Of a DNA stretch of 64,000 nt, positions 6,002-14,284 are shown in pieces (the stretch's first letter is position 1; every line of letters starts with the position of its first letter). Under the pieces are notes generated by a model, which was given only the letters and a program-made list of their open reading frames with translations, searched no databases and was not told the origin of the DNA. Position numbers and translations under genes: made by a program. The DNA is taken from the NCBI GenBank assembly GCA_049320885.1, contig JBMORA010000033.1, positions 32,001-96,000 on the forward strand, given 5' to 3'. The DNA is from Thermodesulfobacteriota bacterium. GTDB taxonomy: Bacteria > Desulfobacterota > Desulfobacteria > Desulfobacterales > SURF-7.

Positions 6002-7036
6002 ATGAAACCGTTTCGCATTCCGATTTTCTGTTGTCTGTGCTGGCTGATCGCCGCCGGTTGCGGCCTGAAAAAGGAACTGGTGTTCAGCGGCAAGACCATG
6101 GGGTCGACCTATCAGGTCAAGGTGGTGGCCGGATATTTCCAGAGTGCCGGAGATCTGGCCCAGGCCATCGAACGCCGCCTGGCGGAAATCAACCAACACC
6201 TGTCCATCTATCGCAAGGACAGTGAGATCAGCCGTTTCAACCGCCATGCCGCCAGCGACCCTTTCCCGGTTTCGGACATGTTTGCCGAGATCCTGGAGAT
6301 ATCCCGGCCCTTGTACGAACTGACCGGCGGCGCCTGGGATCCGACGGTGGCGCCGCTGGTGGAACTCTGGGGATTCGGCGCCGGGGAACCCACCGGCCGG
6401 ATCCCCCCCCGGGCCGCCATTGAACAACGGATGGCCGCCGTCGGTTTCCACCGGCTTGAATTCAAGGACCGCGCGTTTATCAAAGAGCAACCGGGGCTTT
6501 CCCTGGACCTGGGCTCCGTGGCCCAGGGATTCGGGGCGGACCAGGTCGCGAAAGTCATCGAGGCGGCCGGATTCCGGGATTATCTGGTGGAAATCGGCGG
6601 AGAAGTTATCGCCTCCGGCGTCCGCCGGGACGGCACGGACTGGCGCATCGGTATCAACACCCCGGTCCAGGGCTCGCCCTTCGACAAGGTCTACAAGATC
6701 GTAACCCTGCGCAACCATGCCCTGGCCACCAGCGGCGACTACCGCAATTTTTTCGTCGTGGACGGCAAAACCTATTCCCACATCATCGATCCCCGCACGG
6801 GTTATCCGATCGCAAACGGCGTGGTCAGCGTGTCCATTCTCGCCAAAAGCTGCACCTTCGCCGACGGCCTGGCCACGGCCCTGATGGTCATGGGCCGGAA
6901 GGAAGGCCTTGCGCTGATCCGCAACCTGCCGGACGTCGAAGGGATGATCGTGGAAAGAGATCCGGACGGCCGGCTCACGGACTACTACTCTGAGGGGTTC
7001 AGGCCGGTGCCGGAAAATAAAGCAATTACAAATTAG
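6002..7036 (+). CDS. apbE: FAD:protein FMN transferase lipoprotein
   Basis: Lipobox LIAAGC, GKTMGS, SEISRFN, DPTVAPLVELWGFG, ATSGDYRN, SHIIDPRTG, ADGLATAL. Confidence 0.92.
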   Translation: MKPFRIPIFCCLCWLIAAGCGLKKELVFSGKTMGSTYQVKVVAGYFQSAGDLAQAIERRLAEINQHLSIYRKDSEISRFNRHAASDPFPVSDMFAEILEISRPLYELTGGAWDPTVAPLVELWGFGAGEPTGRIPPRAAIEQRMAAVGFHRLEFKDRAFIKEQPGLSLDLGSVAQGFGADQVAKVIEAAGFRDYLVEIGGEVIASGVRRDGTDWRIGINTPVQGSPFDKVYKIVTLRNHALATSGDYRNFFVVDGKTYSHIIDPRTGYPIANGVVSVSILAKSCTFADGLATALMVMGRKEGLALIRNLPDVEGMIVERDPDGRLTDYYSEGFRPVPENKAITN

Positions 7037-7039
7037 GAA

Positions 7040-7230
7040 TTACGAATGGTGGATTGAACACGCCCCGCAACCAGCCGGAATAGAATTGGTCGGTGTCGGT
7101 GCCGGCAGGAATCCGGCCCAACAGATCAAAGCCATCATCCGGGGTGACTCGATAGACCGCAAGGCCGTTGAAGGCGTCGGCTTGACGTTCTTCAGCGGCA
7201 TAGGGGTAGACCGCCATCGGAATGGCCAGC
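7040..7230 (-). pseudogene. C-terminal fragment resembling beta-propeller-domain secreted proteins
   Basis: 63-aa ORF with FNGLAVYRV..DGFDLLGRI...W.RGVF; no N-terminal part. Confidence 0.4.
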
Positions 7231-7233
7231 TCC

Positions 7234-7581
7234 TTATCGTACCTGTTTGGATAGGGGGAAAACCTGAAAATTGACTTGAATGACCTGATCCGCGGACTCG
7301 TCCCGGCAGGCCATCATCAACAATTCCTTACGCAACGCCGCGATCAGCTCCTTGATGCGTTGGATCCGGCTGCCGCTGACGCCCAAGGTCAGTCCAGTGA
7401 TGTCCCGCTCAGCGGATGGATGGCGATCGATGGATTCGGCGGTGAGCCGCAGCATTTCCTTGTGAAAATTGGCAACGGCCAAGGAATGAACTTCCGGCCC
7501 GGTGGTGACTGCCTGATCGGCCTGCTGCCATTTTCCCTCCCCGTCCTGTTGGATGAGGCCGAGTTCCGCGAGCAGTTTCAA
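7234..7581 (-). pseudogene. Fragment of a TIGR02147/DUF4423-like protein (C-terminal half only)
   Basis: LL.ELGLI...GKW.Q....VTTG.EV.SLAV.NFH..ML....ESIDR.....RDI.GLT...QVN.QVFPLS; starts at TTG and lacks the N-terminal HTH part. Confidence 0.6.
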
Positions 7582-7681
7582 GGTATAATAACATTATCGC
7601 CGATTGTTCCGATTCATGATACCCCTTGACCGTCATCGTCAAAGGAGGCTTGACCTCCCGGCCGGATTGGGATAGAGATTC

Positions 7682-7808
7682 TCCTGTTCCCGGCAATACC
7701 GGAAACGGGATGCGTTGCGCCCGATAATCGGTTTTGCCGGATGTGATCAACCGAGTTATGCACTAGGCAGAAGCCACCCAGACTCCGGTCCGGTGGCTTT
7801 TTATTTTT
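7682..7808 (+). ncRNA. Candidate structured leader (riboswitch/attenuator) of pabA-pabBC
   Basis: Hairpin 7682-7710, hairpin 7724-7759, alternative pairing 7730-7738/7766-7775, terminator 7771-7808, all just upstream of the pabA start. Confidence 0.55.
7771..7808 (+). terminator. Intrinsic terminator in the pabA leader
   Basis: AAGCCACC-ca-GAC-TCCG-GTC-c-GGTGGCTT followed by TTTATTTTT; C(UCCG)G tetraloop. Confidence 0.8.
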
Positions 7809-7825
7809 GGAAACACGGGGGGAAT

Positions 7826-8443
7826 GTGCCAAGCCCGGAAACGGCCAGACTGCTGGTCATCGACAACTATGACTCGTTTACCTACAACCTGGTGCAGATG
7901 TTCCGGCAATACCCGCTGGATATCCGGGTTTATCGCTGCGACCGCCTGACGCTGGAAACCGCAGAAAATTATCGTCCCGACTACGTGCTGATCAGCCCCG
8001 GCCCCAAAGATCCCCAGCATACCGGTGTTTCCGTGCCCATCATCCATGCATTCTGCCACCGGATACCCATCCTGGGGGTCTGCCTGGGAATGCAATGCAT
8101 CAATGCAGCTTTCGGCGGCGCGACCGTCCGGGCGCCCCTGCCCGTTCACGGCAAGACCAGCCTGATCCGGCACGAAGGTCGCTTCCTGTTTCACGACCTG
8201 CCGTCACCCTTCCGGGCGGCCCGGTATCATTCCCTGATGGTCCGGCCGCGGAACGATGAGCTGACCATCACCGCCGAAAGCGAAGACGGCGTGATCATGG
8301 GGTTGTCCCACCTTCGCCACCCCCTGCACGGCGTCCAATTTCATCCGGAAAGCTTTTTGACGGAATATGGTTTCCGGCTGGTGGAGAACTTTCTGCGCCT
8401 GGGACCGCTGGCCCGGCCGGAAAAACAGAGGAGGCCATCATGA
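7826..8443 (+). CDS. pabA: Aminodeoxychorismate/anthranilate synthase component II (class I glutamine amidotransferase)
   Basis: IDNYDSFTYNL, ISPGP, LGVCLG, ARYHSL, GVQFHPES; GTG start after a G-rich RBS; 4-bp overlap with pabB. Confidence 0.88.
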   Translation: MPSPETARLLVIDNYDSFTYNLVQMFRQYPLDIRVYRCDRLTLETAENYRPDYVLISPGPKDPQHTGVSVPIIHAFCHRIPILGVCLGMQCINAAFGGATVRAPLPVHGKTSLIRHEGRFLFHDLPSPFRAARYHSLMVRPRNDELTITAESEDGVIMGLSHLRHPLHGVQFHPESFLTEYGFRLVENFLRLGPLARPEKQRRPS

Positions 8444-10716
8444 AACCGGAGCCGATGGAACTGACGGAAGTCATCCGGGGAATCCATGTGGAACCCCTTG
8501 AGCTGACGCAACCCCTGCCGGAAATCGCCGGTCATTTTGCCGCCGAACCGGGAACCGTATTGTTGTTGAGCGGCGGCGATCTGGATTGCGCCCGCTATCA
8601 CTTCCTGGCCGTAGATCCCTGGCTGCAGTTGCGCGGCAGCGGCCGCGACATGACCCTGGTCACCGGCAACCGGCGGACCGAATTTGCCGCCGACCCCTTC
8701 GAGACCCTCGATTTCCTGCTCTCCGCTTGCCGGCTGCCATCGCCGGACCTGGCCCTGCCGGTGGGGGCCGGGCTCTTCGGCTATCTGTCCTATGACCTGA
8801 AAGACCGCCTGGAAAACCTGCCCCGGACCTCCATGGATGCAGCGGGTTTGCCCCAGATCTGCCTGTATGCTCCCGGAATTCTAGTGGTTCAGGACAAGCT
8901 CGCGGACCGCTCCTGGCTGTGTTTGCCGAAATTCGAGGGGCGGAATGAAGCCTCGGTTCAGCGGCAAATCGCGGCCTTTCGGGAGAAAATCTGCCGGCCC
9001 CTGCCGCCGGACGGGGGCTTTTCCGGCAATCCGGACGGGTTCCGATCGGATTTCACCAGGGAAGAATACGAGGCCGCCGTGCAAACCATCCGGGAATACA
9101 TCGCCGCCGGCGATGTCTACCAGGTCAACATGTCCCAGCGCTTTGAAATGACGTTCCACGGCGACGGGTACCATCTGTTCAAATCCCTTTACCGCCGGAA
9201 TCCGGCTCCTTTTTTTGCCTACATCCAGGCCGGCGATCACCAGATCGTTTCCACCTCCCCCGAACGCTTTCTGAAGCAGCGGGGCCGCGCCATCGAAACC
9301 CGGCCCATCAAGGGCACCCGGCCCCGGGGAACCACAGCCGAGGAGGATGCCGCCTCCGGCGAACAGTTGCGGAACAACCCCAAGGACGATGCCGAGCTGT
9401 CCATGATCGTGGATCTGCTGCGCAACGACCTGGGCCGGGTTTGCCGGGCCGGCTCCGTGCAGGTTACGCAGCACAAACGCCTGGAGGCCTATCAGAATGT
9501 ATTTCACCTGGTTTCCGTGGTGGAAGGCCGCCTGGAGGAAGACAAAACCGCGGTGGATCTGCTCCGGGCGACGTTTCCGGGGGGCTCCATCACCGGCTGC
9601 CCGAAAATCCGCGCCATGGAAATCATCGACGAACTGGAACCGGTGCGCCGCCATATCTATACCGGCGCCATCGGCTATTTCGGCTTTCATGACACCATGG
9701 ATCTGTCCATCGCCATCCGCACCGCCGTCATCCACGAGGGCCGGATTGTTTTTTCCGTGGGCGGCGGCATTGTCTTTGATTCGGTTCCGGCCGACGAATA
9801 CGCCGAAACCCTGCACAAAGGCAAAACTTTGATGGAGGCTTTTGCCGGCGAAGGAACCCCATCCGCGGAACCGTCCCCGGTGGTCTGGATCAACGGCCGC
9901 TGCCGGAATCCGGACCAGGCCGGGATTCCCATTACGGATTTGGGGGTTCAATACGGCTTCGGTTTCTTTGAAACCATCCGGGTCCATCATGGGACGCCCC
10001 TGCACCTTGCCGATCATCTCCGGCGTTTCAATCGGACCTGGGGCCGGCTGTTTCCTTCGTCTCCGCCGGATCTCACCTGGGACGACATCATCCGGGAAAC
10101 CGTCAGACGCAATGGGCTGGAAGATCGGGTCAGCGCCGTGAAAATCATCGCCACCCGAGGTACCCGGCTGCGGCCGCCCGTGGATCATACCCTGGCGGTC
10201 CTGGCCCGGCCCTATGTCCACCGCCTGGAGGCGACCCAAAAGAACGGCCTGGATCTGGCCACCTATCCGGAACCCCGCCGGACGCCCCTGGCGGATTATA
10301 AAACATTGAATTATCTGTATTATCATCTTGCCGGCGAGTGGGCCCGGGAAAACGGGGCGGATGAGGCCCTGATCCTGAATCCGGACGGCACGGTTTCCGA
10401 GACCAACTCCGCCAGCCTGGTGGTCATCCGGGACCGGGACCTGATTCGCCCGGAATCCCCTGCGGTGCTGCCGGGCGTCATGGCTGAACAGGTGTGCGGG
10501 CTGCTGTCCAAGGAAGGGTTTAGCGTGCAGACCCGGCCGGTCCATCCCCGGGAGTTGACCACCGCCGACATGGTGCTGATGACCAATGCCCTCATCGGGG
10601 CGGTGCCGATTCTGCACCTGGACGGCTTTGCCCTGAAGCCGCCGTCCGATCTCTGGCGCCGGATCAACGCGCAAGTGCTGGCGCCGCCCCCCATGGACGA
10701 ATATCCAGCCGGATGA
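8440..10716 (+). CDS. pabB: Aminodeoxychorismate synthase component I fused to ADC-lyase (aminotransferase class IV) domain
   Basis: GDVYQVN, STSPERFL, TRPIKGT, MIVDLLRNDL, FPGGSITGCPK; C-terminal QYGFGFFETIR, DYKTLNY (PLP Lys), LPGVM. Confidence 0.9.
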   Translation: MKPEPMELTEVIRGIHVEPLELTQPLPEIAGHFAAEPGTVLLLSGGDLDCARYHFLAVDPWLQLRGSGRDMTLVTGNRRTEFAADPFETLDFLLSACRLPSPDLALPVGAGLFGYLSYDLKDRLENLPRTSMDAAGLPQICLYAPGILVVQDKLADRSWLCLPKFEGRNEASVQRQIAAFREKICRPLPPDGGFSGNPDGFRSDFTREEYEAAVQTIREYIAAGDVYQVNMSQRFEMTFHGDGYHLFKSLYRRNPAPFFAYIQAGDHQIVSTSPERFLKQRGRAIETRPIKGTRPRGTTAEEDAASGEQLRNNPKDDAELSMIVDLLRNDLGRVCRAGSVQVTQHKRLEAYQNVFHLVSVVEGRLEEDKTAVDLLRATFPGGSITGCPKIRAMEIIDELEPVRRHIYTGAIGYFGFHDTMDLSIAIRTAVIHEGRIVFSVGGGIVFDSVPADEYAETLHKGKTLMEAFAGEGTPSAEPSPVVWINGRCRNPDQAGIPITDLGVQYGFGFFETIRVHHGTPLHLADHLRRFNRTWGRLFPSSPPDLTWDDIIRETVRRNGLEDRVSAVKIIATRGTRLRPPVDHTLAVLARPYVHRLEATQKNGLDLATYPEPRRTPLADYKTLNYLYYHLAGEWARENGADEALILNPDGTVSETNSASLVVIRDRDLIRPESPAVLPGVMAEQVCGLLSKEGFSVQTRPVHPRELTTADMVLMTNALIGAVPILHLDGFALKPPSDLWRRINAQVLAPPPMDEYPAG

Positions 10717-13658: not shown

Positions 13659-13892
13659 ATGGAAAAGCAGATATCGAAATCACAATTTAAACCTAGGGTT
13701 TTGCAACTTTTCAGGGAAATTGAACGAACGGGCAGGGCGCTGATCATCACCGACCGGGGCAAACCGGTGCTGAAGATCGAACCCTATGCTGAAAAGCCGT
13801 CCGACATCTTGAAAATACTTAGAAATACGGTTATCAAATATGAAGATCCAACCGCACCTGTTGGCCTGGATGACTGGGAATCGCTAACATGA
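13659..13892 (+). CDS. Phd/YefM-family antitoxin
   Basis: ISKSQFK..L.LFREIE.TG..LIITDRGKPVLKI; overlaps the PIN toxin start. Confidence 0.88.
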   Translation: MEKQISKSQFKPRVLQLFREIERTGRALIITDRGKPVLKIEPYAEKPSDILKILRNTVIKYEDPTAPVGLDDWESLT

Positions 13893-14284
13893 TCGTCCTC
13901 GATACGCATGCTTGGGTATGGTATGTCAGCAACCCCGAAAATTTTTCCCGAAAAGCAAAAAAAGCGATAGATGACGCGCTGGATCAGCAACAAATCTATA
14001 TTTCCTCAATCAGCGCATGGGAAATTGCGATGCTGGCTTCCAAAAAACGGTTGGAACTGGCTCTCACAGTAGAGGACTGGATTGCAAAATCAGAAAAATT
14101 ACCTTTCTTTCATTTTATTCCGGTTGATAATGCCATTGCGGTTAAGTCGGTTGGTTTACCCCAGCCTTTCCATAATGATCCGGCAGACCGGATCATTATA
14201 GCGACCGCGTTATTATTGGGTGCGGCGGTCATCACCAAAGATGAAAAAATACGGAATTACCCGCATGTAAGAACCATCTGGTAG
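13889..14284 (+). CDS. vapC: VapC-like PIN-domain toxin
   Basis: IVLDTHAWVW, ISSISAWEI, HNDPADRIIIATA, ITKD. Confidence 0.9.
   Translation: MIVLDTHAWVWYVSNPENFSRKAKKAIDDALDQQQIYISSISAWEIAMLASKKRLELALTVEDWIAKSEKLPFFHFIPVDNAIAVKSVGLPQPFHNDPADRIIIATALLLGAAVITKDEKIRNYPHVRTIW

Follow-up and report, generated by a model that had tools for sequence, protein, structure and literature searches.

pabA, encoding the glutamine amidotransferase of aminodeoxychorismate synthase, and a pabB-pabC fusion lie together on the plus strand of the window (the whole stretch of 64,000 nt analysed here), behind a leader that holds a probable promoter, a stable hairpin, a conserved 33-nt element and an intrinsic terminator (Table 1). 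The locus is a p-aminobenzoate (pABA) operon, since the fusion passes the pabB cut-off (TIGR00553, 362.7 bits against 328.4) and a separate trpE-trpG-like pair occurs elsewhere in the genome, on contig C31; this pair rules out a trp operon at 7826-10716. The DUF4423 fragment that diverges from pabA is partial, has an in-frame stop just upstream and has no paralog in the genome, and is therefore probably a truncated gene remnant. At 13659-14284 (plus strand), a by-eye reading of the open reading frames gives a small gene pair that presumably resembles an antitoxin with a PIN-domain toxin. No tRNA or tmRNA was found in the 64-kb window.

Table 1. Features of the pABA locus and its leader, in window positions.
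Feature	Position	Strand	Details
DUF4423 fragment, divergent from pabA	7234-7581	-	covers only profile positions 57-165 of 165
Probable sigma-70 promoter	7650-7678	+	-35 TTGACC 7650-7655; spacer 17 nt; weak -10 TAGAGA 7673-7678
Leader hairpin (rod), non-conserved, between promoter and aptamer	7690-7740	+	-27.0 kcal/mol; pair probability 0.96-0.98
Conserved putative aptamer and antiterminator, 33 nt	7753-7785	+	covariance-model score 64.4 bits
Aptamer P1	7753-7757/7781-7785	+	
Aptamer J1/2	7758-7765	+	
Aptamer P2	7766-7768/7773-7775	+	
Aptamer J2/1	7776-7780	+	
Intrinsic terminator	7771-7808	+	stem 7771-7778/7792-7799, upper stem, UCCG loop, U-tract; -14.6 kcal/mol
pabA, glutamine amidotransferase of aminodeoxychorismate synthase	7826-8443	+	PF00117, TIGR00566; GTG at 7826 presumed start
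pabB-pabC fusion (ADC synthase I and ADC lyase)	8440-10716	+	PF04715, PF00425 and PF01063

The leader and its conserved element

The leader region folds better than all of 200 shuffles (z -3.16). The TTGACC promoter, which an earlier note on this DNA had proposed, was not picked up by a consensus promoter scan, and its position is conserved: TTGAC-N-TA occurs at most 140 nt upstream in 128 of 179 motif copies, as compared with 3.0% of shuffles and 0 of 143 downstream controls. Judged from this position, transcription would start near 7684-7686. In 51 of the 159 copies having a promoter match, the motif begins 35-41 nt past the start of the -35 element, that is, at about +1; nothing upstream is therefore needed, and the 33-nt fold would be the whole sensor. 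The terminator, also recognized earlier, carries a C(UCCG)G loop and ends 17 nt before the pabA GTG. A simple scan returned no terminators and so did not call it, and support comes from conservation and from covariation, C-G being exchanged for a compensatory U-A in 17 of 74 and in 10 of 30 aligned copies.

The rod that occupies the leader downstream of the promoter has no second copy that could be found in the genome. It contains the core of a P1 hairpin, the 5′ arm of a P2 hairpin and the 5′ arm of an antiterminator, from which the earlier note had assembled its switch. All of these pairings are present in the sequence (7682-7710, with 11 pairs, one C.A mismatch and a 5-nt loop, -15.0 kcal/mol alone; 7724-7733 with 7749-7759 and one bulged G; 7730-7738 with 7766-7775). 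As functional folds they are not supported: their mean pair probability in the whole leader is at most 0.02, the rod being preferred, and of 180 distinct leaders that of this genome alone has their exact cores. The spacers of 39 of 74 long leaders hold unrelated stable hairpins (z <= -2, mononucleotide shuffles), which possibly provide 5′ protection or insulate the aptamer.

When the upstream regions of pabA were compared for conservation and covariation, as the earlier note had suggested, the outcome was positive for 7753-7785, a segment it had missed, and negative for the stems it had drawn. In the consensus, P1 covaries and has 5 bp, and the internal loop between it and the short P2 hardly changes at all (AUG..A / AYCCM); J1/2 reads AUG-N(2-4)-A and J2/1 is the 5-nt AYCCM. 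The 267 instances comprise 203 different aptamer sequences. The present genome has one strong copy, the next match reaching 15.9 bits; with a single full copy and other matches of 15-21 nt, a repeat or mobile element was ruled out. Across the 203 aptamers the last base of J2/1 is C only if Y is U (41 AUCCC, 0 ACCCC), and the J2/1 word resembles an anti-Shine-Dalgarno sequence.

Covariation of P1 was counted in alignments that had not been chosen by a fixed pattern (67 distinct rows, including 3 terminator-only rows; the 7 terminator-only rows of alignment A7, dropped elsewhere, are still inside this count). P1 cells are paired in 99.4%, slid controls in at most 55%. Double changes occur at 4 of the 5 pairs, in 61 cells as compared with 20.0 +/- 3.9 after shuffling, counts that are inflated by kin, and the tally of pairs with double changes is not beyond the shuffles, 46-78 of 500 being equally high. 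Because both G-C pairs of P2 are invariant, support for this helix comes from its third pair and from variable extensions only.

The terminator 5′ arm is made of the 3′ strand of P2 and J2/1, and the terminator upper stem or loop contains the 3′ strand of P1. Since the aptamer 3′ half doubles as the terminator 5′ arm, the conserved fold also acts as antiterminator, and the polarity would be ON instead of the OFF that had been proposed. According to folding of this leader, an RNA ending at 7790 forms aptamer P1 with a probability of 0.85 and P2 with 0.99; both values fall to about 0 after completion of the terminator, which beats the aptamer fold by about 4.5 kcal/mol. The AUG and AGG of the aptamer 5′ half are not involved in the terminator. 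Retention of the A of AYCC in 12 of 74 copies whose terminator partner cannot pair with it points to a role of this base in the other fold. Comparison among homologs establishes both folds, their mutual exclusion, the promoter position and the gene association.

Distribution, downstream genes and folate synthesis

Among 41 genomes, 25 pabA-pabB orthologs were found, and the motif is intact at 23 of them, split by an insertion at one and absent from one; it occurs at 0 of 5 trpG-type loci examined. The split copy (L030) carries, at about 1200-1430, a roughly 185-bp element inside J1/2 that is bounded by terminal inverted repeats, and the promoter and terminator remain; the insertion may leave pabA uninducible. 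A pattern scan of GTDB gave at least 120 matches and was left out of the P1 covariation because the pattern fixes most motif letters. Among the pattern matches listed (at least 120), a pabA-type gene follows in 102 (and a pabA start recognized by eye only in 1), a LivK-type binding protein in 8 and a sodium:solute symporter (SSS) in 3; the orders sharing the present pabA arrangement among the matches listed are Desulfobacterales, Desulfobaccales, Syntrophobacterales and Desulfarculales. The carriers include a cultured species, Desulfosarcina alkanivorans (L046). Five pattern matches (L088, L105, L117, L144, L157) look like chance, with no terminator or related gene, and were dropped.

Covariance models (R1 and R2) were built for a wider search and run in three phyla. 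In 151 genomes of the phylum to which the present bacterium belongs, inspection left 28 real matches, located before pabA (17), SSS (6) or LivK-type genes (5); two weaker matches with a terminator only (L187, L188) were dropped, and a second sample of this phylum added one locus. The motif is also present in 15 of 151 genomes of a phylum with a record titled Spirochaetes and in 15 of 31 genomes of a third phylum (that of G190), in both cases before SSS wherever the gene is visible. The motif spans at least three phyla. The split copy and G255 (23 bits) were also left out of the counts, and the weak match L109 (18.5 bits) is included in the promoter/leader, 203-aptamer and Shine-Dalgarno/long-leader tallies. 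Viewed from the gene side, in a metagenomic sample of 80 loci of one SSS subfamily (7 without upstream DNA, some near-duplicates), 72 of the 73 loci with upstream DNA carry the motif (70 by model, 2 by eye).

Some SSS copies lack the terminator, and in 5 of 9 that were folded the aptamer 3′ half pairs, by eye, with the ribosome-site region (L248, L257, L261, L263, L264). Masking of the ribosome site may thus be a second platform, which would share the ON polarity provided that P1/P2 is the ligand-bound form. A variant copy at L257/L258 (about 1380-1430), missed by R2, has a long P2 with one changed base and this ribosome-site platform. In L215-L227, from the G190 phylum, the terminator hairpins are kept and the U-tract is short or broken, which suggests that termination works differently in this high-GC phylum; short tandem repeats lie immediately 3′ of the hairpin in L221-L223.

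The folate genes of the host genomes differ with the context of the motif. The 42 genomes with a non-pabA context (38 with a transporter seen and 4 cut by contig ends) have folP in 41 cases and pabB above cut-off in 1, and pabB is found in all 11 pabA-context genomes (10 of 16 picked from the search of the home phylum, plus the present genome). folK occurs in 49 of 53 motif-bearing genomes. pabB coexists with the transporter context in G179, and two chorismate-binding genes of G215 score below cut-off. By gene content, the transporter-context genomes look like pABA auxotrophs that still make folate; this pattern fits but is not specific, because motif-less genomes share it (folP without pabB in 16 of 16 from the third phylum, and folP in 33 of 36 motif-less controls). 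Because the hosts keep folP and mostly lack pabB, the SSS subfamily and the LivK-type ABC system are likely to import pABA, which names candidate pABA importers in genomes with folP and without pabB. The LivK-type group that follows the motif (L041, L106, L183, L184) has distant relatives in the PDB (best E 7.5e-16), none naming a ligand, and the nearest transporter labels are sub-cut-off panF/putP and LIV-type matches. No close ortholog of the motif-linked LivK-type protein or SSS was found in the present genome.

A putative ON riboswitch and the competing readings

The leader has the comparative features generally expected of a riboswitch, namely a conserved, covarying 5′-leader structure that overlaps the expression platform and a coherent gene association. 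The reading preferred here, with a probability of roughly 0.7, is a metabolite-sensing ON riboswitch of an undescribed class that responds to pABA shortage, its ligand being putative. P1/P2 would be the ligand-bound state and the ligand a metabolite. During transcription, 7753-7785 would fold into P1, internal loop and P2 before the terminator 3′ arm exists. If no ligand is present, the terminator would displace this weak fold and transcription would end before pabA; a small molecule that accumulates under pABA limitation could bind the internal loop and stabilize the fold, which would block the terminator and allow transcription of pabA-pabBC or, elsewhere, of a transporter gene. Since antiterminator and conserved fold are one, a ligand that stabilizes the fold would turn the genes ON.

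Switching pABA supply ON calls for a signal of its shortage. The most specific candidate is DHPPP (dihydropterin pyrophosphate), which dihydropteroate synthase uses as co-substrate. By analogy, the ligand might be the pterin half of folate, either DHPPP or its precursor 6-hydroxymethyl-dihydropterin, an assignment whose chances fall slightly short of even. As the available sections of PMC6478431 describe, the HMP-PP riboswitch senses one half of thiamin and turns on the other half. Trimethoprim block of folate lowers DHPPP precursors in Escherichia coli, and no rise of DHPPP under pABA shortage is given in the accessible part of that paper (PMC5843663); because the drug lowers these precursors, the DHPPP assignment is weakened for deep starvation. 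That the motif does not reproduce the THF-II pterin pocket likewise counts against DHPPP. Held a shade more tentatively still is the full proposal of a riboswitch class of about 33 nt that would bind DHPPP or its precursor, act as an ON switch for pABA synthesis or import, and have a regulon marking dedicated SSS and LivK-type pABA importers. If true, it would be among the smallest riboswitches, balance the two halves of folate, and reveal how anaerobes match pABA to pterin supply at the step blocked by sulfonamides. The idea is directly testable because the element is tiny, over 200 distinct sequences are at hand, the ON logic is clear and the ligand list is short; a potential use is as a reporter of dihydropteroate synthase status.

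The earlier proposal of an undescribed cis-regulatory RNA controlling pabA-pabBC is borne out by an element that is conserved, covarying, coupled to a terminator and free of any Rfam match at or near gathering score. Within 6500-8500, Rfam 15 gave 9 matches at E <= 10, all of 12.7-18 bits and far below gathering, and of these only a lncRNA model and a terminator-like ctRNA touch the leader. Across 20 diverse loci with homologs there was 1 match at E <= 1, located off the motif, and no TPP match. About 55 riboswitch classes are validated, going by the accessible literature. No riboswitch class for the pABA branch of folate synthesis was found in it, and the motif is apparently undescribed. The literature covered holds no description of it, and an earlier listing is possible in supplements outside that coverage (PMC11109978, PMC5737381) and in subscription papers. 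Neither pabA nor aminobenzoate was found in the main texts of PMC11109978, PMC8632094 (with one supplement), PMC7266159 and bioRxiv 10.64898/2026.10.21.760802. PMC11109978 has 24 further candidates of the weak kind and describes a motif from Desulfobacteraceae, so that an earlier listing may exist there or in the database of bioRxiv 10.64898/2026.10.21.760802.

The closest functional likeness is to the HMP-PP riboswitch (thiS motif; Atilho et al., 2019, PMC6478431, available sections), a very small aptamer that overlaps an intrinsic terminator, has ON polarity and governs how the second half of a two-part coenzyme is made and taken up. In HMP-PP, P2 forms the tip of a terminator with a conserved loop, there is a proposed pseudoknot, and the genes are thiazole genes of Firmicutes, whereas here P2 competes with the terminator base and the sequence 3′ of P1 is free in length and sequence. 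P2 as the terminator tip, the conserved terminator loop and the pseudoknot, as given in those sections, were absent from the motif alignments, no thiazole genes were found among the downstream genes, and no tandem TPP riboswitch in the 20 homolog loci.

In shape the element is closer to THF-II (folE motif), a P1 / internal loop / P2 rod of similar size with conserved internal-loop bases and a place in the folate pathway (PMC6800512, PMC9881143, accessible parts). THF-II is described there as an OFF switch of translation that lies upstream of folE in Rhizobiales, with the ribosome binding site in P1 (PMC6800512) and a J1/2 of 7 nt; its pterin pocket lies between G16-C46/U17-A45 and G25-C43 and consists of C22 from J1/2 and U44, the single base of J2/1 (PMC9881143). 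This pocket, as far as it is described there, is absent from the consensus of the 203 aptamers, in which J2/1 has 5 nt and C22 has no conserved counterpart, and in place of OFF polarity and folE the present motif has ON polarity and pabA or transporters. The motif works like HMP-PP, is shaped like THF-II and fails the defining features of both. P1 and the flanking CCAGRCUC word presumably resemble the SAH riboswitch (RF01057), which is taken to be an ON switch. Unlike the latter, the motif seems to lack a strand for the pseudoknot (P4) and has different genes; a search with RF01057 found nothing in the present genome and matched 0 of 5 genomes, but also 0 of 14 controls, and thus gave no true example for comparison. 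RF01057 is also not among the Rfam matches obtained for 6500-8500 and for the 20 homolog loci. The ZTP (pfl) riboswitch is a larger two-domain pseudoknot. It is likewise an ON switch that answers folate shortage (PMC7266159, available text), but has a broad purine and one-carbon regulon, and the present motif has no Rfam match.

The best surviving alternative keeps the same ON riboswitch, falls within the probability given for it above, and makes the ligand another folate-stress or substrate signal, namely ZMP/ZTP, dUMP, chorismate or aminodeoxychorismate. This is judged unlikely. An ON riboswitch senses ZTP, whose role as a signal of 10-formyl-THF shortage is established (PMC7266159, available text), and the drop of pterin precursors in E. 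coli on folate block (PMC5843663, accessible part) argues for a non-pterin ligand. However, in all real matches examined the genes that follow are pabA or those of the two transporter groups and in no case purine or one-carbon genes, which speaks against a ligand of the ZMP/ZTP type, and the ZTP family has no match in the leader or in the 20 homolog loci. Where pabB is missing, chorismate or ADC would be an ill-suited signal for importers.

TRAP, PyrR and HutP are familiar examples of proteins that control terminator/antiterminator leaders. The fold could accordingly be the site for an antiterminator protein active at pABA or folate shortage, or for a repressor that binds the 5′ half when these are plentiful. 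Such a site would suit an element that is small, weak (mean MFE -6.9 kcal/mol) and near-invariant in sequence, but is improbable for a motif that accompanies three unrelated gene families in at least three phyla with two expression platforms; no regulator gene follows the motif in the loci read, and there is no TRAP-type triplet array.

Far less probable is that ribosomes initiate at the invariant AUG (7758-7760), such that ample formyl-Met-tRNA would open P1 and let the terminator form, and folate shortage would let the antiterminator survive. The AUG is present in every copy parsed, the logic suits folate status, and a comparable idea has been proposed for the fthC motif (PMC11109978, accessible part). 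Against an attenuator with an upstream reading frame stand the rarity of SD-like words before the AUG (3 of 236 copies, 0 of 74 long leaders) and an ORF whose frame and length vary (from 1 to over 30 codons), and initiation would leave the conservation of AYCCM and AGG unexplained. Least credible is the OFF switch of the earlier note (aptamer stems 7682-7710 and 7724-7759, antiterminator 7730-7775), whose pairings exist on paper and follow end-product repression, the usual logic of biosynthetic operons, but lie 4.7-10.8 kcal/mol above the MFE in an RNA ending at 7790 (p <= 0.02), have cores unique to this genome and are missing from the many homologs without sequence upstream of the motif; that note was right on the existence of the RNA and wrong on its structure and polarity.
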